From NCBI GenBank assembly GCA_963803435.1, contig CAWDML010000003.1, forward strand, positions 1,028,664 to 1,092,663: 64,000 bases of DNA. Direction: 5' to 3'. Positions 45,883 to 64,000 of the stretch are shown one piece after another. A program made the translations under genes and the position numbers. The notes beneath the pieces are model-generated. The model was not told where the DNA came from. It worked only from the letters and a program-made list of their open reading frames with translations, and ran no database searches. The DNA is from an uncultured delta proteobacterium (GTDB taxonomy: Bacteria; Myxococcota; Kuafuiibacteriia; Kuafuiibacteriales; Kuafuiibacteriaceae). Every line of letters begins with the position of its first letter. Within the stretch, counting starts at the first letter, position 1.

Positions 45883-46665
45883 CTAGGAGCCTCGGCTGTC
45901 CAGCATCGCCTTGAGCGCATAGGCCTCGCGGCACAGGCCCTTGATCTCCTGGTCCAGGCGGTCCCGCTGCTTCCCAGGCTTCACGTCCATCAGGCGGGCC
46001 AGGGCGGCGGCGCAGTGCTCGCTCAACGGCCCGGACTCGTCGGCCTTTTCGGCCTTGGCGGCCTCGCGGAGGTGGAACTGCACCGTGGCGATCGCGGCCG
46101 GACCCTCGCAGAAGGCGGTCGCGCTCTTGAGCAGCTTCTTCGTCTTCTTGTCCTTCCTCTTGGACTCGCCCACCACGCGCGCGGTGATCCCAATCTTCTT
46201 ACAAGCCTCCTCCGGATCCCCCTTCTTCTTGGCGGTCTGGACCGCCTTCTTGAAGTCCGCCTTGAGCGACGACGCGGTGAACATCCGCTTCATCGTGGGC
46301 GACAGCTCCGGCATCGGTGGCTCGGGCTCGGCGGCCTTCTTCATCAGCTTCCGGGACTCGATCGCCTCCGGACAGAACGAGTCGAGCTGCTGGGCGAACT
46401 GCTGGAGCTTCACGTCGGACGCGTTCGCTGCCAGCCGCTCGGCGACCTTGGGCTCGAGCTCGATACATTGATCTCGCCGTTTCGCGCTGTCGCCCGCGCG
46501 CTTCGTCTGCACAATCTCGGCGAAGGCGGCTTCGAGCTCCTTGAGGTCGCTCTTGCCTTTGTCCATCTGGGCCGCCTCGCCCGCCGCGTCGACCGCCTCG
46601 CTCGGCTTCTCCTTGGCCTCCGAGCACGCGAACGCCAGCAGCCCCATCCACAGGATCGATCTCAT
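45883..46665 (-). CDS. hypothetical lipoprotein, Lys/Glu/Ala-rich helical
   Basis: Start at MRSILWMGLLAFAC (lipobox; Met34 of the track ORF), 260 aa. No family recognised. Confidence 0.55.
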   Translation of the reverse strand: MRSILWMGLLAFACSEAKEKPSEAVDAAGEAAQMDKGKSDLKELEAAFAEIVQTKRAGDSAKRRDQCIELEPKVAERLAANASDVKLQQFAQQLDSFCPEAIESRKLMKKAAEPEPPMPELSPTMKRMFTASSLKADFKKAVQTAKKKGDPEEACKKIGITARVVGESKRKDKKTKKLLKSATAFCEGPAAIATVQFHLREAAKAEKADESGPLSEHCAAALARLMDVKPGKQRDRLDQEIKGLCREAYALKAMLDSRGS

Positions 46666-46682
46666 CGGCCGCCCTTTTACTG

Positions 46683-49454: not shown

Positions 49455-49468
49455 GGCGGAGCAGGCTA

Positions 49469-50116
49469 TCAGAAGTGCACGCCGATATTCACGAGAACTC
49501 CGACCCCCATCCCCCAACAGGCGCCGTCGGCCTGGCCGGCGCGCTCCCGGGCGGCCTCGAGGGTCTGTATTCTGTCGTTCTCGAGGAGACGGCGGATCGA
49601 CACGCCCGGCCGCGCCATCGCCAGCGCGTCGACGGCCACCACCGCCCCCACCGAGAGGGCGGGCCACATCAGATAGTCCAGGCCGAGCCGGGCGGAGGCG
49701 AACAGCCCGTCGCTGTCGAGCCCGTCGTCGAGGCCCCGGAACATCCTCCGGGCGGTGCCGACGGTCGCGTAGCCGAACCCCAACCCGAGGTACGGCTCGA
49801 AGCGCGCGAGGGGGATCCGGAAGCCGAGCTCGGGCCCGACGCGCCACAACCAGCCTTGCGCGAGGTGGGTCGCCTTCCCCCGGAGACCGAGCGTTACGAA
49901 GTAGAGGCGGCCTCCCAGGCCGAGCGAGAGCGCGGGGCCGCCCGCGCTGGAGGGCTGGACCTCGGCGTCGAGGCCCTCGGTGTCGACGGCGAGCGTCTTC
50001 AGCCAGAGGTGGTCGTAGCCGGACTGAGCGTCGGCCCAGACCCACGTCGACGCGCGCGCCCCTGTGGGGCAGAAGATCGCGAGGGCCGAGGCGACGAGGG
50101 CGACTTTCGCATGCAT
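49469..50116 (-). CDS. small outer-membrane beta-barrel protein
   Basis: 215 aa. Signal peptide MHAKVALVASALAIFCPTGARA, Gly/aromatic beta-strand pattern, C-terminal ...LVNIGVHF. Confidence 0.6.
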   Translation of the reverse strand: MHAKVALVASALAIFCPTGARASTWVWADAQSGYDHLWLKTLAVDTEGLDAEVQPSSAGGPALSLGLGGRLYFVTLGLRGKATHLAQGWLWRVGPELGFRIPLARFEPYLGLGFGYATVGTARRMFRGLDDGLDSDGLFASARLGLDYLMWPALSVGAVVAVDALAMARPGVSIRRLLENDRIQTLEAARERAGQADGACWGMGVGVLVNIGVHF

Positions 50117-50197
50117 CGATCCTGCGGAGAGGGTGCAAGCGCAGGACCACCGGCACGCGAATTTGCTTCGCGTCGAGGCGACCTAGGAGCGTGTAGC

Positions 50198-51218
50198 CGG
50201 GTCGAATCGACAGCTGGCACTTCGCGCGAAACTGGTGCTGAGCAGTTCCACTGGCGCGACCGATGCGGCGGTGGCGCGAACCATCACGTGTCTCACACAC
50301 GTTCGTCTGTGGAGAAGGCGGTTTGCGGAGTGCGTCTCGAGGGGCTGTACGACCAGCCTCGCGTCGGCGCTCCGCGAAAGATCAGTGATGATCAGGTTGA
50401 AGAGATCGTGGTGCAAACGCTGGAAACGACGCCGAAGGGCCGTACGCTTGGAGCACGCGGAAGATGGCAAAGAATGCCGGGGTGAGCGCCAGTAGCGTCG
50501 GACGGATCTGGCGGGCGCTGGCCTCAAGCCCACGTCGTTCGCGGTTTCAAGTTGTCGAACGATCCGCAGTTCATCTCGAAGATTCGCGACGTCGTCGGTC
50601 TGTACATGAGCCGCCCGACAACGCTGTCGTGTTCTCCTTCGACGAGAAGCCGCAGGTCCAGGCGCTGGAGCGTGCTCAACCACCTTCCGATATCTCGGGA
50701 TGCCCGAGCGACAGACCCACAACTACATCCGCCACGGAACGCTCGACCTCTTCGCCGCCCTCAACGTCGCCACGGGCAAGGTCATCGCGCAGACCAAGGC
50801 ACGACACCGAGCGAAGGACTTCGTCGCATTCCTCGGGACATCGACAACGCGGTAGAGCCGGAACTTGACGTTCACGTCATCCTCGACAACCTCGCGACGC
50901 ACAAGACCACAGGTTAAGAGGTGGCTGCTACGCAATCCGCGCTTCCAGCTCCACTTCACACCAACCTATTCCTCATGGCTAAACCTGGTGGAACGGTTCT
51001 TCGCACTGCTGACCGAGGAAGCACTCACTCGCGGCTCCACACCAGCGTCCGGTACTTCGCAAGGCATCGTCGACTACGTCGAAGTGCACAACGAAGAAGG
51101 CAAGCCCTTCGTATGGACGAAGACGGCCGACGAGATCCTCGACAAGATCATGGATTTCGGCAGACGCACAAAGCAGGTCCACGCGGATAAATGCGCTAGA
51201 AATCAGTGATCCAGCTGA
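50198..51218 (+). mobile_element. decayed IS630-family element (transposase pseudogene, N-terminally truncated, many frame disruptions)
   Basis: Conserved IS630 blocks are scattered over all three + frames: VRLWRRRFAE / LEGLYDQPRVGAPRKISDDQVEEIVVQTLETTPKG / MAKNAGVSASSVGRIWRA / FKLSNDPQFISKIRDVVGLYM / AVVFSFDEKPQVQALER / ERQTHNYIRHGTLDLFAALNVATGKVI / LDVHVILDNLATHKT / VKRWLLRNPRFQLHFTPTYSSWLNLVERFF / KPFVWTKTADEIL. Possible terminal repeats are CAGCTGGCAC (50211) and its approximate inverse at 51211-51218. Confidence 0.75.
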
Positions 51219-51292
51219 CTAGGAGCGTGTAGCGCGTAGCGCTACCGCGAGCCCGGTCCGGGTCCCGGTCCCGGTCCCGGTCCCGATGGCGA

Positions 51293-51661
51293 TCATGCAG
51301 CCCGGCGTGCGTTCATCGACTTGATGAGGCGCGTGAGCATCTCGACAACGCGCTTGAGCTTGGCTCTGGCGGCTTGGAGCTTCTGCCCGTTGGCGAGTCG
51401 GCGCCTCAAGCAGGTGTGGAGTGAGGCGGCGCTTTCGGTGCCAGTGCGAAGTGCCATCCGGTAGAAGCGAGCCTTCTCAGGTGGATTGAACTCTCCGGCG
51501 CCCTCGGCGGTGTTGTTCACGATGGAATCGGATGCCCACCGAAGCTGATCGCGGACGTGAGCGTGACCGGGTTGCAGTTCTTGTGCGATCTCTTCAGCGA
51601 TGTCGGCATACTCGACGGCGAGCTGGTAGACCTCGAGCTTCTCGTGATCGAAAGTGACCAT
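51293..51661 (-). CDS. four-helix-bundle protein (23S rRNA intervening-sequence protein family)
   Basis: 122 aa. FDHEKLEVYQLAVEYADIAEEIA...VRDQLRWASDSIVNNTAEGAGEF...FYRMALRTGTESAASLH...VVEMLTRLIKSM matches the family pattern. Confidence 0.8.
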   Translation of the reverse strand: MVTFDHEKLEVYQLAVEYADIAEEIAQELQPGHAHVRDQLRWASDSIVNNTAEGAGEFNPPEKARFYRMALRTGTESAASLHTCLRRRLANGQKLQAARAKLKRVVEMLTRLIKSMNARRAA

Positions 51662-51991
51662 GCAAGCTTGGAGAAAGTCATCCCCACTTCACGACGATCA
51701 ACGAGTTTCGGCTCGTCCACCTGGAGGCGCTGAAAGCGCTCTTCCTCGAAGTCCTGAAGCTTTGCCAGAAAGCAGGTTTGGTGCGCTCGGACACGTCGCA
51801 CTCGATGGCTCCAAGGTGCAGGCGAACGCGAGCAAGCACAAGGCGATGACCTACGAGCGGATGGCCGAGGAGGAGAAGCGGCTGTCTCTCGAGATCGAAG
51901 AACTGCTGGAGCGAGCGGGCACGATCGACCAAGAGGAAGACGAGCGGCTGGGCGTTGAAGAGACTGAAGAGGCCATCCCAGCGGAGCTCGC
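51662..51991 (+). pseudogene. IS1182-family transposase, central fragment upstream of the nested insertion
   Basis: HFTTINEFRLVHLEALKALFLEVLKLCQKAGLV, then (after a 1-nt frame change) LGHVALDGSKVQANASKHKAMTYERMAEEEKRL...EEAIPAEL. The N-terminal ~120 codons of the family are absent. Confidence 0.7.
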
Positions 51992-52151
51992 TGTGGGTTC
52001 CCGCGCTCGGTCCCCACTCGTTTCGCGGGCGAGTTTGTGATGGTCGAGGGCCGGATTCCCGCGGTGCCCGCTGCGGTGAAGCGGTCGGGAATGGTGGCGG
52101 GATTCGGGAACGACGGAGACGGGAGGGCGGACGAGCCAGAGGCGAGGACCT

Positions 52152-52376
52152 TCAGAAGGGGAGATCGTCGATGTCGAGGTGCCCGTCCTCGTCCGGCTCG
52201 TAGAGGCGAGCCTCTTCTGCCGCGATACAGCTGATCTCGGGTTCGTAGGCGTCCCAGATCGCGGCCGCGACCTCGCCGAGGACATCAAACAATAGAGTGG
52301 CTTGCTCGGCGGTCATCGCCGGCAAGGTGATGGTCGCGTAGAGCTGGGATCGGCAGTGGGGCGGACGACTCTGCAT
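52152..52376 (-). CDS. small acidic transposon protein ending in an SSB-tail-like DIDDLPF
   Basis: 74 aa. ATGA overlap with the ATPase stop. C-terminus ...EPDEDGHLDIDDLPF. Confidence 0.5.
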   Translation of the reverse strand: MQSRPPHCRSQLYATITLPAMTAEQATLLFDVLGEVAAAIWDAYEPEISCIAAEEARLYEPDEDGHLDIDDLPF

Positions 52377-53173
52377 CAGGCGACCTCCGGCGTGGCGGCC
52401 TGGACATGCTCGACGGTGACGGTCTTCGCGCGCGCGATCGCAGCCGCGTTGAGCGCATGGTGGGCCAAGGCGTTGACCTTACGCGGCAGGCCGTTCGTGG
52501 ACTGATAAATCGCTTCCATCGCGGCCGGCTCGAAGAGGGGCAGCTCGCATCCCGCGAGCCGGAGCAGGTGCCCCAGGTAGGGCGGCAGCTCGTCGCGCGT
52601 GAGCGCGGCGAGGTGATGGCGGACGATGATGCGCTGCGAGAGGGCTTCGTGGACCGCCATGGAGAGCCGCCTCCGTAGCTCTGCCTGCCCGATGAAGAGC
52701 AGACAGAGACGGTTCTCCGAATCCATCTGGTAGTTGGTGAGGAGCCGCAGCTCCTCCAACACATCGCTGCGGAGCCGGTGCGCTTCGTCAATGATCAGCA
52801 GTGGGCGGATCTTGGACTCCTGGCAGAGTCGCGTGACCTCGGTGCGGATACAGGTGTGCAGGGCCGCGCGACTCCTCTCGGTGGGCAGGCCCAGCTCCCA
52901 AGCGATCATCTTGTAGAGGTCCATGACGTTGCCGGTGGTGAGCGCGACGTAGAAGACGCGAAAGAGGCCCGTGTGCAGCGCGCTGACGACCTTCCGGGTC
53001 ACGGTGGTCTTGCCTCCGCCTGGCTCTCCGGTGAGCAGGCCGATGCCGCAGAGATCGAGGAGGTAGAGGAGCCGGACTTCCCACTCCTTGGCGCTGGCTG
53101 AGATGAAGAGGTCCTCTGCGGCGAGGTCCTTTGCGAACGGGTGACGGGTCAAGGCGAAGTGTCTGCGATACAT
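52376..53173 (-). CDS. ExeA/TniB-like AAA+ ATPase (transposition helper)
   Basis: 265 aa from MYRRHFALTRHPF. Walker A GEPGGGKTT, Walker B LLIIDEAH. C-terminus TNGLPRKVNALAHHAL is typical of ExeA-family proteins. The start overlaps the transposase stop. Confidence 0.85.
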   Translation of the reverse strand: MYRRHFALTRHPFAKDLAAEDLFISASAKEWEVRLLYLLDLCGIGLLTGEPGGGKTTVTRKVVSALHTGLFRVFYVALTTGNVMDLYKMIAWELGLPTERSRAALHTCIRTEVTRLCQESKIRPLLIIDEAHRLRSDVLEELRLLTNYQMDSENRLCLLFIGQAELRRRLSMAVHEALSQRIIVRHHLAALTRDELPPYLGHLLRLAGCELPLFEPAAMEAIYQSTNGLPRKVNALAHHALNAAAIARAKTVTVEHVQAATPEVA

Positions 53174-54546
53174 CAGCGGTCCTCCTGGTCGTCGTTCTGG
53201 GCGAGGCGGGCGAGGTCGAGCCCTCGCCGCGGGGGCTCGGTGGTGGCCTTGGAGGGCGGCGCCTCGGCGGCGGGCATCGACTCCAATTCCGCCGAGGGAC
53301 GGTCCCGGCGGACGAAGCAGTTGGCGTAGGCATCGACGACCTTGGCGGTCTGCACAATCTGCCCCTTGTGCAAGACCTTGATCGGCCGGCCGGGAGTCGA
53401 CGGGTCGTAGCGGAGCGTGACGGTCTCGTCGACGAGGGCGGCGTCGACCTCGTATCCGATTCCGTTGAGGCTCACGACTCAATCCTTGTGGACCTTGCGT
53501 TGAGCCTCGAAGAGGAACAGGTCGTCGAGGTCGAGGCTGGCGCCGTAGCGGACCTCGTCGGCGACCTGCGCCCAGCGGTCGATGGGGGTGTCGCCGTCGA
53601 GACCGCGGTGCGGAGCGCGATGGTACTCGCCTTCGACCCAGGCCCACAGCCGGCGATTGAGCGCGTCGAGGCTGCTGAGGTCCTCGGGCCTGAGGTGCGG
53701 CAGGAGTTGCATCCGCACAGTTCTGAAAAATCGCTCTTGCTTACCCTTGGCCTGTGGATGGTAGGCGCGCGCGTGGATCAACGTCACGCCGAGCTTGGCG
53801 CAGACGAGGGCGAGGTGCTGGGACCGATACGCGGAACCGTTATCGACGAACAAGCGTTTCGGAAGTCCTCTCCGCAAGATGGCCTGCTTCAGACAAGGCA
53901 AGAAGGCGGCGGTGCTCTCGGACGCCTGGAAGGCCGCGAAGGGGATGACGCGCGTGGCGTCGTCGAGGAAGGCGATCAGGAAGGTCTTCTTCTTCCTGCG
54001 GCCCTCGCAGATCACGGCGGGGCCGTGCATCACGTCGCTCATCCAGAGATCGCCGGCCTTCTGGAAAGCGAACTTGCGGTGGTCCTTGGTGGTCGGGGCG
54101 GCGGGCAGCTTCTGCATCAGGCCGTGGCGCGTGAAGAGTCGGTGAACGGTCGACGGAGGTAGCGGTAGATCGAGGGGGATCTTTCCGGAGTCGAGTGCCT
54201 CCTTGATGACGGCCTTCACCGTCCAGTCGCGGTGCTCGTCCTTGAGGGCGACGAGGAGGTCCTGAACCTCCTGCGGTATCTTGCGCGAGGTCTCGGCATC
54301 GCGCCTGGTCTTGGGGATCAGGGCGTCAAAGCCGCCCTTTCGGTAGAGCTTGAGCCAGTGGCGGATGGTCTCCACGGCGACGCGCCGCCGCAGAGAGTTG
54401 GGGATCTCGTAGTCCTTGTCGGCCTTGAAGTGAAGCAGATCGTAGAGGCCGCGGTGTCCCGGCGCGAGGTGGACGAGGTCCCCCAGCACGCTGTGCCGAA
54501 ACAACGCAATCTCGTGAGCGAGCTTCTTCTTGTGGTCGTCTTCCAT
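53173..54546 (-). pseudogene. Mu-type DDE transposase (HTH + rve + Mu-transposase C-terminal domain) with an in-frame TGA
   Basis: 355-aa ORF (DLWMSDVMHG...LFVDNGSAYRS...YHPQAKGKQERFFRT) ends ...RKVHKD-TGA. The same frame continues VVSLNGIGYEVDAALVDETVTLRYDP..., the Mu transposase C-terminal domain. Stop codon at 53479-53481. Confidence 0.8.
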
Positions 54547-54591
54547 CGGTAACTCCTCGGTGTGGGCTCGCGATGTGCGAGCGTCCGAGGA

Positions 54592-55260
54592 CTACCGATG
54601 CTTGGTCGGCGGATCTGCGCCCGTGTCGTGTTGGAGCGGCTTTGGACGCGGCCACCGCTGGGCGGGCCGGGGACCGAAACCGAGAGGTGGGGACAGACGC
54701 GGCAACCCGCTCGCTGCAATCTCGCGCAGCGCGACCAGGACACACGAGATGTCGAGACGCGCAGCGAGGGAGGTCAGCGTCGGCGCGCAGCCGGCGAGGC
54801 GATCAGGCACGAGGCCGATCAGCGCGTTCGCCGAGGCGTACACGAGGGCGAGGCGCCGACGCAGCCATCGCAAGGCACCTTGCACCTCGATATCGGGGCG
54901 AAGCCTGGCGGCGACCTCCTCCCAGCTCAGCCCTTGATGGCGACCTGCCTCGGCCTCTCGAACGACATCATCGACTCTGGCGAGCGAGCCCGGTAGCCGC
55001 GAGGACAGGCAGTCGGGCAACAGGCTGAAGGTCTGGTGAGCTTGCGGGCAATACCAGCGAGCGACGCGGGTCCCTGGGGGCGTCATCCGCTCGTACGGCG
55101 TGTGCCTCGCGAAGTCGCAGCCGCCCTTTGGATGCACAGGGCAGAAGTCCAGCGTTGCGTTCTCCCAGCCTCGCTCGCTAACGTACTCGTCGCTGGACAG
55201 CGCCGTCGCGAAGCGAAGCTGCACAGCCTGGCCCGCACGGGGCGAACCGTGGCGGGCCAT
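54592..55260 (-). CDS. hypothetical Cys/His-motif protein, first gene of the nested transposon (recalled as DUF6431-like, unverified)
   Basis: 222 aa. CPVHPKGGC...ARWYCPQAHQTFSLLPDCL looks like a zinc-ribbon accessory protein of IS/transposons. Confidence 0.5.
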   Translation of the reverse strand: MARHGSPRAGQAVQLRFATALSSDEYVSERGWENATLDFCPVHPKGGCDFARHTPYERMTPPGTRVARWYCPQAHQTFSLLPDCLSSRLPGSLARVDDVVREAEAGRHQGLSWEEVAARLRPDIEVQGALRWLRRRLALVYASANALIGLVPDRLAGCAPTLTSLAARLDISCVLVALREIAASGLPRLSPPLGFGPRPAQRWPRPKPLQHDTGADPPTKHR

Positions 55261-55437
55261 CTCCTCTCCCGCCTGCCGGTAGCACGACGGCAGGGTGGTG
55301 GCTGCGACCAGATGAGCGAAGCCGGGACGGCTCGCTGGCCGCCGGCTCCGCGCTCTCTTACCTACCAGCCCGGATCAGCGCTGAGCTACCATGGGATGGA
55401 GGGGGCGGTGGATCACGATACAGTCCGAGACCCAACA

Positions 55438-56293
55438 CTCGCTCGCCGTGAATCCCGCCTTGCCCGCATTCGAGAAGCGAAGGCTGCGCTGGAACAGGAT
55501 GCCGCCAGGGCTCGCGCGGAGAAATTGCGCAGGCAAGCCGAAGAGCAGCAGAGCAAAGCGGATGATGCTCTTGTGGATCGGGTGGAGCAGAAGCGAGCGA
55601 GAACTCGAGCCGAGACGAACCATCCCCATCCCCAGACCCAACTGAACGAAATGATGGATGGCCGCATCATCGCGTTCCTGCAAATGTGGACGGCACACCG
55701 AGGCCCAACGCTCAGAGGAACTTCACCGACTCAGACAGCAGGATCATGTTGAAGGAGGGAGCGTACCTCCAGGCCTACAATGCCCAAGTTGTCGTAGATG
55801 AGCACGCTCAGGTGATTGTCGCCGAAGGGGTCAGCAACCAGGCACCTGATCAGCAACACCTCGTCCCGATGCTCCGTGATGTGTTCGGCAACTGCGGCGA
55901 TGCTCCGCGGAAGATGACGGCAGACAACGGCTATCGAGCGCGACCAACATCGAATTCTGCGACAACAATCAGATCGATGCCCACATCGCTGTTGGACGCG
56001 AACAGAACCAAGACGCGTCGACTCCGTCCTCATCAGCTTCGGAGCCCACACCTGCCTCGCTCGCTCGCAAGCGAATGCGAGACAAGTTGCAAACGCGCGA
56101 CGGCAAGGCGGTCTACCCCCGCAGGAAGAGTATCGTCGAACCGGCGCTCGGACAGATCAAAGCGGCACGAGGATTCCGCCGGTTCTCGCTCCGCTCCTTC
56201 TTCAAGGTACAAGCCGAGTGGACGCTGGTCTGCCTCACCCACAACCTGCTCAAGCTCTACCGATCGAAGCTCGCGACCGTCGCGAGCGTCTGA
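55438..56293 (+). pseudogene. IS1182-family transposase, C-terminal part downstream of the nested insertion (further frameshifts)
   Basis: ARRESRLARIREAKAALEQDA... / NFTDSDSRIMLKEGAYLQAYNAQVVVDEHAQVIVAEGVSNQAPDQQHLVPML...KMTADNGY / (frame change at about 55935) SSATNIEFCDNNQIDAHIAVGRE...AVYPRRKSIVEPALGQIKAARGFRRFSLRSFFKVQAEWTLVCLTHNLLKL. Confidence 0.75.
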
Positions 56294-56389
56294 CTCAAGC
56301 CAGCCATCTTCAGATCGGGACCCGGACCGGGACCGGGACCGGGACCCGGACCGGGGTCGCGTGAGCGCTTACGCGCTACACGCTCCTAG
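56104..56389 (+). repeat. 286-bp right end of the IS1182-like element, direct repeat partner of 38816-39095
   Basis: Aligned by eye base for base with 38816-39095. One extra GGGACC unit in the hexamer tract and about 6 substitutions. Confidence 0.8.
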
Positions 56390-56393
56390 GCGG

Positions 56394-56768
56394 TCAGGGC
56401 GAGGGCGCCTTCTGCTCCATGAACACCAGCACGACGCCCACCAGGACCAGCACGAAGCCGGCGAGCTTGGTGGCGGTGAGCGGCTCCTTGAACGAGATCG
56501 AGGCGTAGGCGGCGACGATGATCAACCCGAGGCTGGTCATCACCGGATAGCCCACCGAGAGATCGATCCGCGTGAGCGCGAAGGAGTAGCCCGCGAGCGC
56601 GACGACGAAGCAGGCGACGCCGAGGATCAGGAGCGGCTGGAGCGCCATGCTGAGCGCGGTCTGGATCGGACCCTGGCCCATCTCGACGTTTCGCATCGCC
56701 CCCTTGATCAGGATGTTCGCGGTGGCGTTGAAGATGATGCCGATGACGAGCGCGATGTAGTGCAGCAT
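56394..56768 (-). CDS. SMR/DMT-type 4-TM small membrane protein (ArnE/ArnF-like), candidate lipid-linked sugar flippase
   Basis: 124 aa with four hydrophobic helices (IALVIGIIFNATANILIK..., LLILGVACFVVALAGY, MTSLGLIIVAAYASI, LAGFVLVLVGVVLV). Last gene of the DprE1 operon. Confidence 0.6.
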   Translation of the reverse strand: MLHYIALVIGIIFNATANILIKGAMRNVEMGQGPIQTALSMALQPLLILGVACFVVALAGYSFALTRIDLSVGYPVMTSLGLIIVAAYASISFKEPLTATKLAGFVLVLVGVVLVFMEQKAPSP

Positions 56769-56772
56769 GACC

Positions 56773-58119
56773 TCACACGATGCCGAGGCGTCTCGCCTGG
56801 GAGGATGCGAAGCGTTGGTTCGGATCGATCTCCGTCTTCATGCGCCTGAAGTCGGGCAGGCGTGGGTACATGGCGGCGAAGCTCTCGCGGTTGGTGAGGG
56901 CGTCCTTCGCGAGGTAGAGGCGGCCGTCGTACTTGAGCAGGATGCGATCGAGGTCGCGGGCGAGCTCGGGCAGATCCGGGGTGAAGGGGAGGTCGAGCGC
57001 CAGTGTGTGGCCCTCGAACAGGTAGGACAGCGGGCTTCGGTTGGCCGGGCCGCTCGCCTTGAGCACCGAGAGGAACGAGGCTCGCCGGCTCTTCGAGATC
57101 CGCTCGAGGATCGCGACCAACCCGGGGAGGGTCGTACGCGGCGGGAAGAGCACCTGGTACTGGACGAAGCCGCGCTTGCCGTAGATCCGGTTCCAGTGGA
57201 GCACGCGATCGAGCGGATAGTAGAACGAGTCGTAGTCCACCACGCGCTCGTTGTTGCCCTGGACGCCGTAGAACAGCGTGTTGAAGGCGCGCACGCTCCA
57301 CTCGTTCAGCAGGAAGTTGGGGAGCTCGAGCGGCACGCTCGCCTTGAAGCTCGAAGCCAGCCGCAGCGGATCCCTGCGGAGGTGCGGAGGGAGATCCTCG
57401 GCGCGGCCCTCGTTGGAGAGCATCAGCACCGAGCGACCGAGCGATCGCCCGGTGGCCAAGCAGTCGACCCACGCGACGGAGTAGCGATAGTCGTGGTTGG
57501 TCTCGGCGAGGTGGCGCAGCGACTCTTCGAGGTCGTGCGCCTTGATGTAACGGACCGAGAAGTAGGAGGTCTCCACCCGGCGCAGGCGCACCTTGGCGCT
57601 GAGGATGATGCCGGTGAGGCCCATGCCACCGACGGTGATCCAGAACAGCGCGCTGGTCTCGCCCTCGGGTTGGAGACGGAGCACGCGACCGTCGGCGAGC
57701 ATCAGCTCGATCTCGTCCACGTGCGTGCCGAAGGAGCCGTCGACGTGGTGGTTCTTGCCGTGGATATCGGCCGCGATGGCGCCGCCGATGGTGACGTGCT
57801 TGGTCCCGGGCGTCACCGGGACGACCCAGCCGCGCGGAAGCAGATGCTGGATGATCTCCTCGATCGAGACGCCCGCTTCGCACTCGAGCACGCCGGTCTT
57901 CTCGTCGAACGAGAGGAACCGGTTGAACCGCGTCTGCACGATGACGCCGCGTCCGCCGTTGATCGCGGAGTCGCCGTACGCACGCCCTAGGCCCCGCGGG
58001 ATGTAGTCGGCGGAGCGCCCCGAGGTGATCAGGTCGCGGAGCTGATCGAGGGTGTCGGGCCGGCTCACCAGGCACCGCTCGATCGGATGGTTGCCCCATC
58101 CACCGATCAGCTGCTCCAT
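56773..58119 (-). CDS. DprE1-like FAD-dependent polyprenylphosphoryl-ribose 2'-oxidase
   Basis: Start at MEQLIGGWGNH gives 448 aa. Collinear by eye with M. tuberculosis DprE1: GLGRAYGDSAINGG, VTPGTKHVTIGGAIAADIHGKNHH, ALFWITVGGMGLTGII, FYYPLDRVLHWNRIYGKRGFVQYQ, GRLYLAKDALTNRESFAAMYPR. Confidence 0.85.
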   Translation of the reverse strand: MEQLIGGWGNHPIERCLVSRPDTLDQLRDLITSGRSADYIPRGLGRAYGDSAINGGRGVIVQTRFNRFLSFDEKTGVLECEAGVSIEEIIQHLLPRGWVVPVTPGTKHVTIGGAIAADIHGKNHHVDGSFGTHVDEIELMLADGRVLRLQPEGETSALFWITVGGMGLTGIILSAKVRLRRVETSYFSVRYIKAHDLEESLRHLAETNHDYRYSVAWVDCLATGRSLGRSVLMLSNEGRAEDLPPHLRRDPLRLASSFKASVPLELPNFLLNEWSVRAFNTLFYGVQGNNERVVDYDSFYYPLDRVLHWNRIYGKRGFVQYQVLFPPRTTLPGLVAILERISKSRRASFLSVLKASGPANRSPLSYLFEGHTLALDLPFTPDLPELARDLDRILLKYDGRLYLAKDALTNRESFAAMYPRLPDFRRMKTEIDPNQRFASSQARRLGIV

Positions 58120-58130
58120 GAACGCCACGG

Positions 58131-59777
58131 TCACCTCGCCACCGCGGTCGAGCTGGTGCCGGTCTTCTTGCGCTCGAGCACACCCAGGTTGTGCTCGTAG
58201 TCGGCGACCACGACCTCGAAGTTCTCGTCGATGCGCGGCATCGTGCGCCAGTCGAGCATCCCCAGCCAATCCGCGAGGTAGACGATCTGGGTCTCGTCCA
58301 CCACGTAGTCCGCGATCCGGCTCTCCACCAACGCGTTGTACGCGAGTGGGTTCACCTTTCCGTCCAGGTTGATGGTCCGATCGTGAAAATATCCGAGGGT
58401 GCCGGTCTGGATGGCGCCCACCCAGGTGGTGTCGGGGACGTGCTCGTCGACCCATCGCACCACCTGGAAGTGCATGTGGGCCTTGCCCTTGTCGTAGGCG
58501 CGCAGGTGGAGGCCGATCACGACGACCACCACCAGGGCGGGGAGGGCGATCGCCAGGGGTCGGCTGAACTTGAGCAGCCGATGGTGGACGCGGAGGACCA
58601 CCGCGGACCAGGCCAGGGCGATCAACGGCGAGAGCGGAAACATGTAGCGGGAGACGAACCAGTGGGCCCCGAAGAAGAGGCCGTAGAAGACGACCAGGCC
58701 CGCACCGAAGATCGAGGTGAGGACGATCAGCGCCCGCTCGGCCGGCTTGGCGCGCGCCCAGATGAGCAGGAAGAGCGGCGTCAGCAGCACCAAGAAGATC
58801 GAGGTGGCGATCACCGTGGGTGCCTGCAGCTGGAAGGTCTCAGGGATCGGGATCAGCACGCCGGCGTATTCGGTGAGGACCGGCGGCAGGTAGTAGAGGT
58901 TGGAGGCGAACGTACCGGTGAGGCTCTCGGCGCGGCCGCTCACCGGCATGATGTGGCCGAAGTTGAGGTAGTTGTACGCGAGCCAGGGGAGCGCCACCAG
59001 GATCGAGACCGAGCCGAAGACGAGCGCGCGGCGGAAGCGCTTCTCGACGGCGTCGAGGCCGTAGTCGAGCCCGCAGTAGAGGTGGACCAGGCAGGCGGCC
59101 AGGATCAGAAAGACGGCGTCGTTGCGAACCCAGAAGGCCGCCCCGAGCAGCACTCCGACCGCCGCGCACTTCGGATAAGACCAGAGCGTCTCGCGACGGT
59201 GATCCGGCTCGATGAAGGCCATCGCGACCGCAATCGTGACCACGCCATATAGGCCGGTCTCGAGGCAGTTCATCGAGTGCGGCGCCACCAGGGAGCTGGC
59301 GTACCAGGCAGAGGCCGCCAGCAGGCTGATCTCGCGCTTGGTCTGGCGGCGCTGGAAGACCGCGAGGCCGAGCCGGTAGAGGAGGTACGCGGCCAGCCCG
59401 CTCCCGACGAGCTCGACCATCTGTGCGAGAAGTACGCCGATCGTCTTGCTTCCGGCGCTCGCGAGGAAGCACAGCGTCCAGATCAGCGTGACGAGCGGCT
59501 GGGTACCGTTGGTCGCGATCGTCCCGTCGGCGACCGAGAAGCCCTTCCCGATGGCGAGGTTTCTCGCGATCGTGAGCATCAGGTACCCGTCCTCGGTCGG
59601 GTACATCTGGAGCATGCGCCCGCCTTGGTCGAACAGCGGCGCGACCCGAGCGACGAAGCCGATCACGAAGAGCGCGACCACCACGATGCGGAGGCCGAAG
59701 GACAGGCCGGGACGGGCCACGAAGACATTGGAGAACTCGCGCTCCTTCGCCGTCTGCAGCTGGGACTCGCCCGTCAT
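58131..59777 (-). CDS. GT-C-fold polytopic membrane glycosyltransferase (ArnT/PMT/Emb-like)
   Basis: Start at MTGESQLQ (Met59 of the track ORF) gives 548 aa. More than 10 predicted TM helices. The first-loop acidic motif YPTEDGYLMLTIARNL resembles the GT-C D/E motif. C-terminal soluble domain. Confidence 0.7.
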   Translation of the reverse strand: MTGESQLQTAKEREFSNVFVARPGLSFGLRIVVVALFVIGFVARVAPLFDQGGRMLQMYPTEDGYLMLTIARNLAIGKGFSVADGTIATNGTQPLVTLIWTLCFLASAGSKTIGVLLAQMVELVGSGLAAYLLYRLGLAVFQRRQTKREISLLAASAWYASSLVAPHSMNCLETGLYGVVTIAVAMAFIEPDHRRETLWSYPKCAAVGVLLGAAFWVRNDAVFLILAACLVHLYCGLDYGLDAVEKRFRRALVFGSVSILVALPWLAYNYLNFGHIMPVSGRAESLTGTFASNLYYLPPVLTEYAGVLIPIPETFQLQAPTVIATSIFLVLLTPLFLLIWARAKPAERALIVLTSIFGAGLVVFYGLFFGAHWFVSRYMFPLSPLIALAWSAVVLRVHHRLLKFSRPLAIALPALVVVVVIGLHLRAYDKGKAHMHFQVVRWVDEHVPDTTWVGAIQTGTLGYFHDRTINLDGKVNPLAYNALVESRIADYVVDETQIVYLADWLGMLDWRTMPRIDENFEVVVADYEHNLGVLERKKTGTSSTAVAR

Positions 59778-59815
59778 CGCAGCTCCGCGGTCGTACACAT
59801 CGTCCGTCCCCGGGG

Positions 59816-61023
59816 TCAAGGCGACCCGGTCAACCGTGCAAGGAGAGGCTCCACCGCGCGGTCGACATCGAACTCCCTTTCCACACGCGCACGGCCGGCA
59901 TGGGCCATGCGGCGTGCGAGCTCCGGGTCGGCGGCCAGCTCGAGCATCCAATCGGTGAGCTCAGGCCAGTTGCCGGGGGCGAACAGGAGACCGGTCTCAC
60001 GGTGAATCACCAGCTCCGGGATCCCGGCGACGCACGGGGCGATCACCGGCAGCTCGAGCGCCAGCGCCTCCATCAGCACGACCGGGAGGCCCTCCATGAA
60101 GCTCGTCATCACGAATAAATCCGCGCCGGCCATCTCCTCCAGGACCTTCTCCTCCGCGAGACGCCCCGGCATCGACACGCGCGGTCCCATTCCGCGCGCC
60201 TCGATCTGGCGGCGGACGATGTCGAGGTCCGGGCCGTCGCCGACCAGGCGGAGCTCGGCGTCGAGGCCGCGCTCGACCGCCGAAGCGAACGCATCAATCA
60301 GACCGACGTGACCCTTCTCGGGCGAGATGCGCCCGACGGTGAGGATCCGGAGGCGGCCGCCCGGCGGGCGCACGCGCTTCTCCGGCAGGCGCGACAGAAT
60401 CGACCCCGCAGCGGGAGACGAACAGCTTGGACCAGTGCGCCGGGTTCGAGGTGCGAAACGCTTGAGCCCGCCCGAAGTGGGTGACGCACGCGACGAAGCG
60501 AGCGTGCGCGATCTTGTCGGCGAGCAGGAGCCCGCTCGGATAGTCGAAGCAGGAGATGCCGTGGAGGGTGAGGCTCCAGTCGAGGTCGAGGTAGCGGCTG
60601 GCGAGATAGCCGACAATCGCGGCCGCGTTGGCGAAGTGGTTGTGGAGGTGATCGATGTCCTTCGCCTCCAGCTCGGCCGCCAGAGATCATCGCCTCCTGG
60701 AAGTAGAACAGCGACCAGAGCTGACCGCGGACGCCGGGGACCCGGTGGGTGAGGGCGTCCTTGAGCGTGCGCAGGTACCGGAGCGGTCTCTTGACGAAGG
60801 CGCTGGTGTTGGCCTCGATCAGCTGGAGCAGCTGGGGACGCAGGATGTAGAAGGTCTCGCCGACGTCCTTCGCGTCGCGCTCGGAGAGCACGTTGTCGTC
60901 GACCGGCCGGCGTACGCTGAACGTGTGGACCTCGACGCCGCGCCGCCGGAGCGCGTCGATCTCGCGCCGGATGAAGGTGTGCGAGGGAGCGGGGTACTCG
61001 CTGACCAGGCAGGCGATCCGCAT
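59816..61023 (-). pseudogene. GT4-family glycosyltransferase with two +1 frameshifts
   Basis: Three frames assemble into one GT4. Segment 1: MRIACLVSEYPAPSHTFIRREI...LFYFQEAMI. Segment 2: LAAELEAKDIDHLHNHFANAAAIVGYLASRYLDLDWSLTLHG...VSRCGVD. Segment 3: LSRLPEKRV...LRILTVGRISPEKGH...FVMTSFMEGLPVVLMEALA..PVIA. Extra bases at about 60684 and 60398. Confidence 0.8.
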
Positions 61024-61027
61024 CGAT

Positions 61028-61777
61028 TCAGAGCTTGAGCCGCTTGAAGATCGACTCGGGGATCGAGCGGATCGTCGTCATGATGCCCCGCCAGAACCAG
61101 GGCGTGTACACGATGTCGCGCTTGGCGCGGATCGCCCGATCGATGGCGCGCGCGACGGTCTCTGGGGAGGCGACCAGCGGCGAGCCCGGGTCGAGCAGGC
61201 CCTGGGTCATCGGCGTGTCGACGAAGCCCGGTCGGACCTCGAGCACATGGACGCCGCTCTTGTGAAGTCGGTTGCGAAGCCCGCCGAGATACGCGGACAG
61301 CCCCGCCTTGGACGCGCCGTAGGTGTAGTTGCTCTGCCGTCCGCGGTCGCCGGCCACCGAGGAGATCGCCGCGATCCATCCGGCGCCGCGCGACTCCATC
61401 TCGGTCGCCACGAGGCTGAGGATCGAGACCGCCGAGGTGAAGTTGACGTCGAGCGTCCGGCGCGCCGCGGTGAAGTCTCTCTCGGTCGTCGCCTGATCCG
61501 CCATGTAGCCGTAGGCCAGCACCACGCCGTCGAAGGGGCCGCCGGCCGCCGCCTGCGCGCGCCGGTAGAAGGCCTCGTGCCCGTCGAAGTCGAGGGCTTC
61601 GAACGGCTCCACCTGGACGCGGGCGCGGGTTCGAATCGCCAGATCGGCGGCGTCCCGCTCGAGCTCGTCCGCGCGCCGTCCGGCGAGGACCAGATCGACC
61701 CCGCGCTCGGCCATGACGTGCCCGAGCGCGCGCGCGATCCCGCTGGTCGCGCCGAGCATCAACACCCTCTCGGTCAT
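61028..61777 (-). CDS. DprE2-like short-chain dehydrogenase (polyprenylphospho-2-keto-pentose reductase)
   Basis: Start at MTERVLMLGATSGIA gives 249 aa. Motifs SSVAGDRGRQSNYTYGASKAGL and RPGFVDTPM. The C-terminus WFWRGIMTTIRSIPESIFKRLKL mirrors the DprE2 C-terminus ...VLRHIPRSIFRKLPI. Confidence 0.8.
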   Translation of the reverse strand: MTERVLMLGATSGIARALGHVMAERGVDLVLAGRRADELERDAADLAIRTRARVQVEPFEALDFDGHEAFYRRAQAAAGGPFDGVVLAYGYMADQATTERDFTAARRTLDVNFTSAVSILSLVATEMESRGAGWIAAISSVAGDRGRQSNYTYGASKAGLSAYLGGLRNRLHKSGVHVLEVRPGFVDTPMTQGLLDPGSPLVASPETVARAIDRAIRAKRDIVYTPWFWRGIMTTIRSIPESIFKRLKL

Positions 61778-61802
61778 CGCGTCGAGAGAACCTCGCCGCG
61801 CG

Positions 61803-62993
61803 TTATTTCTCAAGCCGCTCCACGATCGCTCTTGCAGTTTCCCGCGCACCCTCGGCGTTCAGGTGGGGGTCGTGGTTGAAGTAGTGGTCGGCCCGGGTGA
61901 GGCGGGCGTGCAGATCGAGGGTGTCGACGCCCGCCGCCTCGAGGCGCTCGATGAACTCGCGCGTCGGCGCGGCGTAGGTCTCGGGCGCGGCCTCGCCCTT
62001 CATCGGGATCACGACCACGGTGAAGGTCGCCCCGCGTGACTCGGCGACCGCCTTCATGCGCAGGGTGGCGGCCAGCGCCAGCTCGATGCCCTCCTCACGA
62101 TAGTTCTCGAGCGGTCCGATCACACGGTCCCGATCGGGCTCCACCAGCCGCCCGAGCAGCACGCGTACCCCGACGAGAGACAGCACCTTGCGGAGGGTGG
62201 TGTCGTCCTCCTTGGCCTCGACGTGCTCGCGGTAGTCCTCTTCGGTGTACGCCGTCCCGTCCGGTCGTGCCACGGGGACCAGGTACCCCTCGTAGACCTG
62301 GTAGTTGCCGAAGCGGGCGTCGTCGCGCAGGTCGTTGCCGTTGAAGATGTAGATGACGTCGTGCGCAGGGAGGTCTCGGGTCGCCTCGAGCTTTGCGACC
62401 GTCTCTCCGGGGCCGAACCCGAGCACGCCCAGGTCGTAAGCATCGATGCGACCTTTGGTGAGCGACTCAATCGACGCGTCGATGGTGTCGTGCTGCGGCA
62501 GACCGTAGCCGAACGCGACCGAGTCTCCAATCAGGAGGACCCGCCGGTCCGGGTTCGGCGCGGGTTCGGCGTCACGGTCGCCCCGGCTGTTGATCTCGAT
62601 GTCGGCCGTGACCACCCCGTCCTGAAAGACGCCGGTCCAGTAGGGCGTCAGGTTGAAGCCCCACGGGGTCTCGACGACGCTTCCCCGGAGCGTGATGACC
62701 GGATCGATCCGGGCCTCGTAGGGCGTCACGACCAGCAGCCCGACCTCGACCAGGAGCAGCGAGAAGTACGCGGCGCCGAAGAGCAAGATGAGTTGACGCG
62801 TCATCCGCGCCAGCGTGCCGTCCTGCGGAAGAACGCCGACGGCGATCACCCCGGCGCCGAGGAACAGCATGAGCTGCTGGAGGGCACCGAAACCCTTCTC
62901 CCCCCACCCGGCGAGCTCGGCGATGCTCGTGATCGCGAGCAGCAAGACGCCGACCGCGAGCGCCGTGTTCTGGTAGGTGGATCGGCGTACCAA
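61803..62993 (-). CDS. membrane-anchored SGNH/GDSL-family hydrolase or acyltransferase (AlgX/DltD-like context)
   Basis: 396 aa. Three N-terminal hydrophobic helices, then VLLIGDSVAFGYGL (block I GDS), IYIFNGNDL (block III), and a late DPHLN (block V DxxH). Confidence 0.7.
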   Translation of the reverse strand: MVRRSTYQNTALAVGVLLLAITSIAELAGWGEKGFGALQQLMLFLGAGVIAVGVLPQDGTLARMTRQLILLFGAAYFSLLLVEVGLLVVTPYEARIDPVITLRGSVVETPWGFNLTPYWTGVFQDGVVTADIEINSRGDRDAEPAPNPDRRVLLIGDSVAFGYGLPQHDTIDASIESLTKGRIDAYDLGVLGFGPGETVAKLEATRDLPAHDVIYIFNGNDLRDDARFGNYQVYEGYLVPVARPDGTAYTEEDYREHVEAKEDDTTLRKVLSLVGVRVLLGRLVEPDRDRVIGPLENYREEGIELALAATLRMKAVAESRGATFTVVVIPMKGEAAPETYAAPTREFIERLEAAGVDTLDLHARLTRADHYFNHDPHLNAEGARETARAIVERLEK

Positions 62994-63048
62994 GGCGCGT
63001 CCTTGACCCCGGATCCTGATGGAGATACGTCATTCTGGGCAACCGTCG

Positions 63049-64000
63049 ATGTCCGAGCCCGCCATCGAGTCTGCGAACGCTCGTCCACTCTGCCTCGATC
63101 TGGACGGAACGCTGATCGCAACCGATGCGTTGTGGGAGTCGCTCCTTCTCCTGATCAAGCATCGTCCGTTCAGTGTGCTGCTCCTGCCGTTCTGGCTGAT
63201 CCGTGGGCGGGCCCATCTGAAGCGAAAGATCGCGGACCGCGTGGTGCCGAATCCGGCCGCGCTCCCCTATCGCCCCGAGGTGATCGCGTACGTCGAGAAG
63301 GCCAAGGCCGAGGGTCGTGCAGTCTACCTGGTGACGGCCTCGGACCAACGGATCGCGAACGGCATCGCTCAGCATCTCGGTCTGTTCGACGAGGTGATCG
63401 GAAGCGACGGTGAGACGAACCTCAAGGCCGAGAAGAAGGCGGCCTTTCTCGAGTCGCGCTTCGGCGCCAAGGGCTACGACTACGCCGGCGACTCGGCGGC
63501 CGACGTGGTGCTCTTCGCGTCGGCGGCCCGTGCGATCCTGGTCTCGGCCAGCGAGAGGACGACCGCGCGCGCGCGCGCCTGCGCCGAGGTCGAGGAGCTG
63601 GTCCCGCGGGACTCCGCGAAGCTGCGGTGGATCATCAAGGCGATCCGGCCGCACCAGTGGATGAAGAACTCCCTGCTGTTCGTGGCTGCGATCCTGGCCC
63701 ACAAGTACACCGACCTCGAGGTGATGGGCCACGCGATCGCGGGGTTCGTCGCGTTCAGCCTGACGGCGTCGTCGGTGTACGTGCTCAACGACCTGCTCGA
63801 CCTGGAGTCCGATCGGCAGCACCGGACCAAGAAGAACCGCCCGTTTGCCGCGGGCAAGCTGTCGATCCCGCTGGGGCTGCTGCTCTCGCCCGCGATCGCC
63901 CTGGCCGGAATCGGCGTCGCGCTCCTGTTCACGCCGCTGCTGTTCACCGCGGTGCTCGGTGGCTACCTGGCGCTGACCACGGCCTACTCGGTCTATCTCA
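63049..64000 (+). CDS. HAD-phosphatase domain fused to a UbiA-family polyprenyl-phosphate phosphoribosyltransferase (3'-partial, runs off the window)
   Basis: Not in the ORF track because it has no stop in the window; I translated it by hand from ATG 63049. MSEPAIESANARPLCLDLDGTLIATD (HAD motif I DxDGT), TASDQ, GDSAADV, then IRPHQWMKNSLLF and NDLLDLESDRQHRTKKNRPFAAGKLS (UbiA Asp-rich motif as in decaprenyl-phosphate PRPP transferase). Confidence 0.8.
   Translation, partial: MSEPAIESANARPLCLDLDGTLIATDALWESLLLLIKHRPFSVLLLPFWLIRGRAHLKRKIADRVVPNPAALPYRPEVIAYVEKAKAEGRAVYLVTASDQRIANGIAQHLGLFDEVIGSDGETNLKAEKKAAFLESRFGAKGYDYAGDSAADVVLFASAARAILVSASERTTARARACAEVEELVPRDSAKLRWIIKAIRPHQWMKNSLLFVAAILAHKYTDLEVMGHAIAGFVAFSLTASSVYVLNDLLDLESDRQHRTKKNRPFAAGKLSIPLGLLLSPAIALAGIGVALLFTPLLFTAVLGGYLALTTAYSVYL

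Follow-up and report, generated by a model that had tools for sequence, protein, structure and literature searches.

We analysed a stretch of 64,000 nucleotides (the window) from an uncultured delta proteobacterium of the Myxococcota (contig CAWDML010000003.1 of GenBank assembly GCA_963803435.1). Positions 56394 to 64000 hold a gene module that we read as a donor pathway for polyprenyl-phosphate-linked D-arabinofuranose (Araf) together with periplasmic transfer machinery. In this reading, to which we give a probability of about 0.6, the module serves as a side-chain or decoration unit of an eps-like Wzx/Wzy exopolysaccharide. D-arabinofuranose is best known from mycobacterial cell walls. Six genes form a minus-strand operon in the order SGNH/AlgX-like protein, DprE2-like short-chain dehydrogenase/reductase (SDR), EpsE-like family 4 glycosyltransferase (GT4), GT-C fold glycosyltransferase, DprE1-like FAD oxidase and a small SMR/ArnEF-like protein with four transmembrane (TM) helices. 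A fusion of a HAD phosphoribose phosphatase (PRP) domain with a UbiA-type polyprenyl-phosphate 5-phosphoribosyltransferase (PPPRS), here called HAD-UbiA, is transcribed divergently from the operon and is cut at the window end, 64000. The genes, with the databases or methods that identified them, are as follows.

56394-56768, minus strand: SMR/ArnEF-type membrane protein with four TM helices, 124 amino acids (aa), flippase candidate (Pfam Multi_Drug_Res)
56773-58128, minus strand: DprE1-like FAD-dependent oxidase, 451 aa by the database gene call (NCBIfam, PDB)
58131-59777, minus strand: GT-C fold glycosyltransferase, 548 aa, protein P0001 (AlphaFold2 and Foldseek)
59816-61023, minus strand: EpsE-like GT4 with two +T frameshifts (Pfam Glycos_transf_1, NCBIfam EPS_EpsE)
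61028-61777, minus strand: DprE2-like classical SDR, 249 aa (NCBIfam, PDB)
61803-62993, minus strand: SGNH/AlgX-like protein with a membrane anchor, 396 aa, encoded by the first operon gene (Pfam ALGX)
63049-64000 (alternative start 63019), plus strand: fusion of a HAD (PRP) domain and a UbiA-type PPPRS, partial (NCBIfam, PDB)

The intergenic gaps in the operon are 4-38 nt. The oxidase has two alternative starts, GTG at 58134 and ATG at 58119, and the GTG start would overlap the stop codon of the GT-C gene (GTGA). The short gaps and this possible overlap fit a single transcription unit. A promoter and terminator scan gave 0 promoters, and terminator-like sites were no higher than background. 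The GC content is 66-69%, which agrees with a Myxococcota origin, as do the taxonomy of the best GT-C matches and the likeness of the glycosyltransferases to M. xanthus Eps proteins. All genes listed by an initial annotation, made from the sequence letters, were recovered at their places with the same order and strands. That annotation had called the pathway complete. Every listed gene is indeed present, but the window end cuts the HAD-UbiA gene short and a second GT-C gene likely lies past 64000.

The proposed pathway would start on the cytoplasmic face, where the UbiA domain would transfer ribose-5-phosphate from phosphoribosyl pyrophosphate onto undecaprenyl phosphate (Und-P) and the fused HAD domain would strip the 5-phosphate to give Und-P-ribofuranose. 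The DprE1-like flavoenzyme would oxidise C2', and the DprE2-like SDR would reduce the 2'-keto intermediate to Und-P-arabinofuranose. The SMR/ArnEF-like protein may flip this donor into the periplasmic leaflet. There the 548 aa GT-C would move Araf onto a polysaccharide made by the EpsE-like GT4 and by the flanking phosphoglycosyltransferase (PGT), WecG-family and GT2 enzymes, and a second GT-C of the PMT_2 type, probably past the window end, may do likewise. The SGNH/AlgX-like protein and an MBOAT protein would probably O-acetylate the polymer.

DprE1-like oxidase and DprE2-like reductase

The oxidase scored 490 bits with the NCBIfam DprE1 equivalog model NF053785, narrowly missing the cut-off of 500, while the next NCBIfam family reached 54 bits. 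Among solved structures it matched M. smegmatis DprE1 (PDB 4aut) with an E-value of 1.1e-101 and 40.7% identity. This alignment is full-length and collinear (query residues 12-452 with chain residues 23-467). PDB 4fdn and other solved DprE1 structures were also among the top matches, and the next solved oxidase family followed at about 1e-13 to 8e-13. The Pfam FAD_binding_4 domain was found with 77 bits. In a HMMER alignment with M. smegmatis DprE1, the residues equivalent to Tyr60, His132, Lys134, Gln334/336 and the catalytic Lys418 of M. tuberculosis DprE1 are all kept. The corresponding motifs include GRAYGD, DIHGKNHH (57745-57768), FVQYQ and YLAKDA (56899-56916), the last of which carries the catalytic Lys. 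Asn385 is replaced by Thr and Cys387 by Ala (LALDLP, 56986-57003). Cys387 is the covalent target of benzothiazinones; it is dispensable for catalysis, and natural Ala/Ser variants occur in mycobacteria. Ala in place of Cys387 is also found in the Rhizobium cassette homologue. These comparisons place the enzyme within the DprE1 group, as the initial annotation had proposed from alignment by eye, and its predicted reaction is the 2'-oxidation of polyprenyl-phosphate-ribose. Homologous oxidases are abundant in metagenomes (at least 8,000 matches at E <= 1e-10), and several of the closest carry the JGI annotation decaprenylphospho-beta-D-ribofuranose 2-oxidase.

For the SDR, the best solved match was DprE2 (21gq_C) with an E-value of 6.7e-36 over residues 3-248 and 36.4% identity; the next solved SDR had an E-value of 2e-15. 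The protein scored 307 bits with NCBIfam PRK07102, above the cut-off of 267, and 208 bits with the DprE2 equivalog NF053786, under the cut-off of 250. The Gly-rich motif (GATSGIA) and the Ser-Tyr-Lys residues (SS...YGASK) are present. The C-terminal IPESIFKRL (61037-61063) aligns to IPRSIFRKL of DprE2. The shared IP(E/R)SIF is the C-terminal signature on which the earlier assignment had rested, and the protein falls with DprE2.

HAD-UbiA fusion

About 317-327 of the approximately 485 residues of the HAD-UbiA fusion are visible in the window, and its orthologues have 482-486 aa. The truncated protein scored 397 bits with NCBIfam PRK08238, above the cut-off of 351, and three NCBIfam models of decaprenyl-phosphate phosphoribosyltransferase also match it. 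The UbiA part matched the solved Rv3806c (8j8j) with an E-value of 4.9e-20, and the full-length orthologue from a metagenome relative (L084) gave 5e-31. The sole other PDB match of the UbiA part was DGGGP synthase (0.004). The CyoE and UbiA models gave at most 30 bits, and there was no meaningful match to MenA, UbiA or CyoE. The motif NDLLDLESD (63787-63813) contains N247, D248, D251 and D255 when numbered from 63049, and NDLLDLESD...KKNRP spans 63787-63843. Both earlier statements on this domain were borne out: the NDxxDxxxD...RP motif is there, and the domain groups with Rv3806c and not with the MenA/UbiA/CyoE prenyltransferases. KRYSE of the L084 orthologue aligns to KRYAE of Rv3806c, the R...E motif of the second cytoplasmic loop of the nine-TM domain; the window ends upstream of this region.

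The HAD nucleophile motif DLDGT (DxDxT) lies at 63097-63111, which corresponds to residues 17-21 counted from 63049, and the Pfam HAD model scored 43.6 bits. In Citrobacter youngae ORF15 the nucleophile is D18 (PMC11127046). The initial annotation had suggested that the HAD domain acts as the phosphatase in place of a PAP2 enzyme, and such a role has been demonstrated experimentally for the homologous ORF15 fusion (PMC11127046). In a phage collection, a single weak UbiA match was found.

GT-C glycosyltransferase

The 548 aa protein is built of some 12 TM helices, followed by a soluble C-terminal domain of roughly 110 residues. The Pfam scan gave no family for it, and a profile search of solved structures gave no sequence-level PDB match. 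NCBIfam LA_3751/LA_3752 scored 44 bits against a cut-off of 200, and a precomputed PF13231 match is present only in some homologues. The protein was not assignable to a named sequence family (PMT_2/GT39, ArnT/GT83 or Emb/Aft). An AlphaFold2 model built from 31 homologues had a pLDDT of 90.8. The top Foldseek matches of this model were STT3, ArnT (TM score 0.57/0.58), AglB, AftB, AftA and PglB, all with probability 1.0. Residues E62-D63 (PTEDGY, 59583-59600), directly after TM1, are invariant in the 31 homologues. The predicted structure and the fold search, with conserved acidic residues in the first periplasmic loop, confirm the GT-C(A) fold and uphold the identity given by the initial annotation.

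SMR-like and SGNH/AlgX-like proteins

The small membrane protein scored 29.6 bits with Pfam Multi_Drug_Res (cut-off 23.7), with weaker matches to EamA and TMEM234. NCBIfam ArnF and ArnE gave 30 bits (cut-off 99) and 21 bits (cut-off 92), both well under threshold. The protein is 74% identical in L084 and in another relative, L082, and keeps its operon position. We infer that it is a candidate flippase for polyprenyl-phosphate-pentofuranose. A short run of GGTCCC-type hexamer repeats (56310-56350) was seen directly 3' of its stop codon, at the junction with a transposase remnant.

The SGNH protein scored 36.7 bits with Pfam ALGX (cut-off 26.5). Its sequence shows the motifs GDS, GND and DPH, and its N-terminal part has hydrophobic segments. 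By these features it is a probable polysaccharide O-acetyltransferase or esterase. Its gene occupies the same place in the closest relative (P0127 contig) and is absent from L084 and L082. We also observed that the SGNH protein and an AlgI-like MBOAT protein (26876-28329, plus strand) resemble a two-part periplasmic O-acetylation system, with one gene in each half of the polysaccharide cluster.

Relatives and the eps-like polysaccharide context

The SMR, oxidase, GT-C and SDR genes and the HAD-UbiA part inside the window, five core genes in all, are intact and 67-86% identical to those of relatives. In L084, the GT-C of which is 70% identical, HAD-UbiA is divergent from SDR, an intact GT4 (403 aa), GT-C, oxidase and SMR genes. 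Past the SMR gene come a gene for a 549 aa lipoprotein, a GT2 gene and a WecG-family glycosyltransferase gene. The predicted lipoprotein (8467-10116 in L084) contains an "EWSNEVWN" motif like that of clan GH-A, matches no Pfam family and is without a counterpart in the window. The P0127 contig, with an 82% identical oxidase, likewise holds the operon, SGNH gene included; its GT4 is intact (398 aa), and a second GT-C, of the PMT_2 type, is encoded directly downstream of HAD-UbiA. By analogy, the window genome probably encodes a GT-C of this type shortly after position 64000. The SDR is paired with a DprE1 homologue and a PPPRS in the window, in L084 and in the P0127 contig, and 8 remoter loci hold the full set.

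In L084 and L082 the distance from the SMR gene to the PGT, GT2 and WecG genes is no more than about 2 kb. Window homologues of the genes downstream of SMR in relatives (EpsU-like GT2, WecG, EpsD-like GT2, PGT, FHA protein, short OPX and deacetylase) were found at 28937-38598, among the following genes.

18613-20145, minus strand: Wzx-type polysaccharide flippase (Pfam Polysacc_synt_3, 2e-50)
26876-28329, plus strand: AlgI-like MBOAT, frameshifted (Pfam)
about 28937-29884, plus strand: polysaccharide deacetylase (Pfam)
29885-30499, plus strand: short OPX, Poly_export only, about 200 aa (Pfam)
30500-31831, plus strand: 443 aa protein, no Pfam match
31803-33803, minus strand: FHA protein (Pfam)
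34173-35621, plus strand: Bac_transf PGT (Pfam/NCBIfam)
35661-36633, plus strand: EpsD-like GT2, frameshifted by a +T at 36367 (Pfam/NCBIfam)
36620-37390, plus strand: WecG-family glycosyltransferase (Pfam/NCBIfam)
37387-38598, plus strand: EpsU-like GT2 (Pfam/NCBIfam)
39270-45867: phoU-pstB-pstA/C-pstS-phoR-phoB
46683-50300: 1205 aa protein with seven Big_2 repeats
52376-53647: AAA_22 ATPase
53479-54546: rve integrase
55686-56300: weak DDE transposase remnant, ending beside the SMR stop codon

Because the downstream genes are contiguous with the operon in relatives, the module belongs to an eps-like Wzx/Wzy locus that is split in the window genome. The short OPX and the 443 aa protein (29885-31831) resemble the OPX/beta-barrel porin pairs reported in Myxococcus. 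The initial annotation had called the acceptor unknown. No acceptor is readable from the sequence, but the synteny points to the eps-like polysaccharide, which is probably the acceptor.

The GT-C family and its link to the donor pathway

The GT-C family comprises 1,086 clusters at 50% identity (E <= 1e-30), with hosts among Myxococcota, Planctomycetota, cyanobacteria, giant sulfur bacteria, roseobacters and other groups. Its members are almost always found within polysaccharide clusters, which in cultured bacteria are Wzx/Wzy clusters. In the GT-C homologue searches, the best matches came from Sandaracinaceae, Polyangiales and metagenome-assembled genomes of Myxococcota. A pathway gene lies within 10 kb of GT-C in 13 of 80 genome loci, and the full set in 8. 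A strict linkage between GT-C and the Araf genes is ruled out by this count.

The co-occurrence on replicons supports a looser link. Each of the five plasmid or chromid records with the GT-C also has a UbiA-type PPPRS (5/5), and PPPRS occurs in only 105 of 72,556 plasmids overall. In Jannaschia sp. CCS1 p1 (L087), HAD-UbiA is followed directly by GT-C, and DprE1/2 are absent. Rhodovulum sulfidophilum plasmid3 (L092) has GT-C and PPPRS without DprE1/E2, and a PMT_2-like GT-C lies directly downstream of its HAD-UbiA gene. Ruegeria sp. SCSIO 43209 (L088) has GT-C and the full cassette, and in Kovacikia minuta pA (L091) a UbiA-DprE1-DprE2 operon is divergent from the neighbouring GT-C. Rhodovulum sp. 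MB263, with GT-C and PPPRS, is known solely from an accession common to both plasmid searches. At least 10 of the top GT-C homologues come from contigs equal in length to those of top oxidase homologues, which is indirect evidence that the two genes reside together.

NCBIfam and PDB searches found no GtrB/ArnC-type Und-P-hexose synthase among the commonest GT-C neighbours. The neighbouring GT2 proteins were considered as GtrB/ArnC-like Und-P-hexose synthases and rejected, their matches being of the EpsD/EpsU/MftF type. Since these GT2 proteins are EpsD/EpsU-like, no competing lipid-linked hexose donor is apparent. We suggest tentatively, at somewhat under even odds, that the GT-C may be the founding member of a new CAZy-level family of polyprenyl-phosphate-pentofuranose transferases. 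Its enzymes would attach Araf to Wzx/Wzy exopolysaccharides in hosts that have DprE1/E2, and ribofuranose (Ribf) in hosts that lack them. Exopolysaccharides carrying D-arabinofuranose or ribofuranose would then be widespread in environmental Gram-negatives, myxobacteria included. Variants with the SDR and without the oxidase might epimerise by a different chemistry.

Frameshifts

The initial annotation had described the GT4 gene as broken. Two single-T insertions, at 60684 and 60399, were indeed mapped against the intact orthologues in L084 and L082, but they are probably assembly errors. Intact GT4 orthologues of relatives have 398-405 aa. Without the two bases the gene is an open frame of 401 aa. 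The C-terminal part matches Pfam Glycos_transf_1 (1e-35), and the best NCBIfam match is EPS_EpsE; the repaired 401 aa protein was not among the entries of the protein collection. The EpsD-like GT2 gene has one +T at 36367, and the MBOAT gene needs at least one frame correction at about 27300-27560. Thus at least 4 indels fall in about 35 kb of the 1.1 Mb contig. The three mapped frameshifts are events of the same type, each a surplus T within a GAT(C)-T-CTG sequence, which favours assembly error over targeted decay. A systematic long-read error, possibly at methylated GATC sites, is suggested by this context, but the link to GATC is suggestive and not conclusive because GATC occurs 826 times in the window.

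Alternative explanations

Several observations weigh against decoration of an eps-like polysaccharide with Araf. The organism is known only as an assembled contig, and HAD-UbiA is incomplete in the window. Oxidase and SDR both narrowly miss their equivalog cut-offs, which were tuned on mycobacterial proteins. About 18 kb (38600-56394) splits the cluster halves, and this split with its insertion sequence (IS) elements, together with the frameshifts in the GT4, EpsD-like GT2 and MBOAT genes, means that the locus could be non-functional. The 67 of 80 GT-C loci without a pathway gene within 10 kb mean that the GT-C donor is not proven by family membership. L082 (6409-11943) and L002/L089 (8511-13166 in L089; same species) retain HAD-UbiA, GT-C and an SDR with 73-75% identity to that of the window, and no DprE1-like oxidase was found within 10 kb in either; the oxidase is therefore not obligatory in the module. 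In such variants the oxidase may be encoded elsewhere or the chemistry may differ. The GT-C of L089 is fused to TPR repeats, and that of L082 is followed directly by the SMR gene.

The Araf donor may serve another acceptor, such as a protein (as in the pilin arabinosylation by TfpW of Pseudomonas aeruginosa), lipopolysaccharide (LPS)/O-antigen or another envelope glycan. Proteins and lipid A are among the acceptors of GT-C enzymes with a similar fold, Ser/Thr kinases and unrelated genes adjoin the module in relatives, no acceptor is readable from the sequence, and the operon lies about 18 kb from the remaining eps genes. We consider this unlikely, given the EpsE-like GT4 within the operon, the GT2 and WecG genes that adjoin the module or lie close to it in L084, L082 and the P0127 contig (with PGT and OPX genes too in L082), and the presence of the GT-C family inside Wzx/Wzy clusters of cultured bacteria; no pilin genes were found among the annotated genes of the window or of the fetched loci of relatives. 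That the locus is decaying or inactive and makes no arabinosylated glycan appears quite unlikely to us. Its five core genes are intact at 67-86% identity, and three single T's in the same context on a 1.1 Mb contig fit long-read error better than independent mutations. In favour of decay stand the two frameshifts of the GT4, the one of the EpsD-like GT2 and at least one of the MBOAT gene, the IS/transposase genes (52376-56300) directly 3' of the SMR gene, and the absence from the window of the 549 aa lipoprotein that follows SMR in L084.

There is a small chance that the GT-C uses another lipid-linked sugar and that the Araf donor serves only the second, PMT_2-type GT-C. Such a division would explain why most GT-C homologues lack pathway genes within 10 kb and why a PMT_2-like GT-C directly follows HAD-UbiA in relatives and in Rhodovulum. 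It fits poorly with a GT-C gene placed between SDR and oxidase in one operon with a possible stop/start overlap, with the GT-C directly after HAD-UbiA in Jannaschia CCS1 or as divergent neighbour in Kovacikia, and with PPPRS in 5/5 replicons, and no alternative polyprenyl-phosphate-sugar synthase was found nearby. We regard it as highly improbable that the oxidase and SDR make a product other than Araf, either a 2-keto-pentofuranose or a different epimer on another lipid-linked sugar. The missed cut-offs, the Thr and Ala at positions 385 and 387 and the relatives that have the SDR without a nearby oxidase, which suggest flexible chemistry, could be taken that way, but the equivalents of Lys418, His132, Lys134 and Gln334/336 are kept in a full-length, collinear alignment, and homologues from Gram-negative bacteria that are about as distant occur alongside glycans with Araf (PMC11127046; PMC5080398). 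Decoration of an eps-like exopolysaccharide with D-arabinofuranose remains our preferred reading.

Comparison with known systems

Kelly et al. (2024) described a three-component pentofuranose glycosylation system in which a PRP-PPPRS fusion acts together with a small transporter of the ArnEF type and with a GT-C (PMC11127046). DprE1/E2 homologues are present wherever the glycan carries Araf (PMC11127046). In the window, PPPRS, small transporter and GT-C likewise occur together in a glycan locus. With ORF15-ORF14-ORF12 of C. youngae O1/O2 (PMC11127046) the window shares the HAD-UbiA fusion, the positions N247/D248/D251/D255 and the ArnEF/EmrE-like transporter. ORF12 is the GT-C of that system and belongs to CAZy GT136. 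The GT-C with an extra C-terminal periplasmic domain and the embedding in a polysaccharide locus are further common features of these systems, and the addition of DprE1/E2 is shared with the Araf versions of Stenotrophomonas maltophilia and Rathayibacter (PMC11127046). The prototype belongs to an ABC-transporter O-antigen pathway, whereas the window module belongs to an eps-like Wzx/Wzy locus in a Myxococcota-like host. The window differs further in the GT4 and SGNH genes of its operon, a likely second GT-C and a GT-C without a Pfam family or a sequence-level match to a solved structure. The window system adds a new example to the known type of 2024 and represents the Araf version with DprE1/E2.

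The mycobacterial decaprenyl-phosphate-arabinose pathway (Rv3806c, Rv3807c, Rv3790, Rv3791, Rv3789 and Emb/Aft) has the same four-step chemistry and homologous transferase, oxidase and reductase. The oxidase is 41% identical to M. smegmatis DprE1, the SDR 36% to M. tuberculosis DprE2, and the GT-C is structurally like AftA/AftB. Unlike the window system, mycobacteria use a PAP2 phosphatase (Rv3807c) instead of a fused HAD domain and the GtrA-like Rv3789 instead of an ArnEF-like protein. Their carrier is decaprenyl phosphate, whereas that of the window is presumably undecaprenyl phosphate. They have Cys387 where the window has Ala, and their product is an essential cell-wall arabinan, whereas an exopolysaccharide decoration is proposed here.

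Rhizobial noeCHOP arabinosylates Nod factors by the same chemistry (PMC5080398). The alphaproteobacterial HAD-UbiA/GtrA/FAD oxidase/SDR cassettes, which include noeCHOP (PMC5080398), also have the fused HAD-UbiA, with oxidase and SDR 41% and 43% identical to those of the window, and some roseobacter plasmids carry the GT-C family of the window. They differ in gene order and in their GtrA-type flippase, and the transferase adjacent to the rhizobial cassette has no sequence similarity to the window GT-C. Cassettes of HAD-UbiA, GtrA, oxidase and SDR were found on at least 105 plasmids. The pilin D-arabinofuranosylation of P. aeruginosa PA7/Pa5196, compared by its description, shares a Gram-negative Und-P-Araf donor pathway (PPPRS and DprE1/E2 homologues) and a periplasmic GT-C (TfpW). 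It differs in its pilin acceptor, for which no pilin genes are present among the annotated genes of the window, and in a PPPRS that is unfused to the HAD phosphatase (PMC11127046).

The M. xanthus eps Wzx/Wzy system resembles the window in its glycosyltransferases, as the best NCBIfam matches are EpsE, EpsD and EpsU, and in having PGT, Wzx, a short OPX and an FHA protein. The Eps NCBIfam scores are far under the equivalog cut-offs, so the polysaccharide would differ from M. xanthus exopolysaccharide. To our knowledge, the M. xanthus eps locus has not been reported with a DprE1/E2/PPPRS module. In the literature, we found nothing on a DprE1/arabinofuranose pathway in myxobacteria or Myxococcota. 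The novelty claimed by the initial annotation holds in this respect, but the pathway was generalised in 2024 to many Gram-negative and Gram-positive glycans, and its homologues are extremely common, some of them automatically annotated as DprE1. The novelty is thus modest and consists of a host from the Myxococcota and of a so far uncharacterised family of GT-C enzymes found together with PPPRS genes.

If our reading is correct, some Myxococcota decorate their exopolysaccharide with D-arabinofuranose, and the three-component pentofuranose concept of 2024 would reach another phylum and the Wzx/Wzy exopolysaccharide pathways. No new mechanism is opened and no long-standing question is resolved. 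The analysis flags the uncharacterised GT-C family as a candidate pentofuranosyltransferase, for which Kovacikia minuta CCNUW1, Ruegeria sp. SCSIO 43209, Jannaschia sp. CCS1 and Rhodovulum sulfidophilum DSM 2351 are tractable cultured carriers in which Ribf and Araf can be distinguished.

In the vicinity of the Wzx gene we also noted a DUF1552 (HXXSHH) protein and a DUF1592/DUF1588/DUF1585/DUF1587/DUF1595 protein (20233-23570, minus strand). A similar pair is found near the module in L089.

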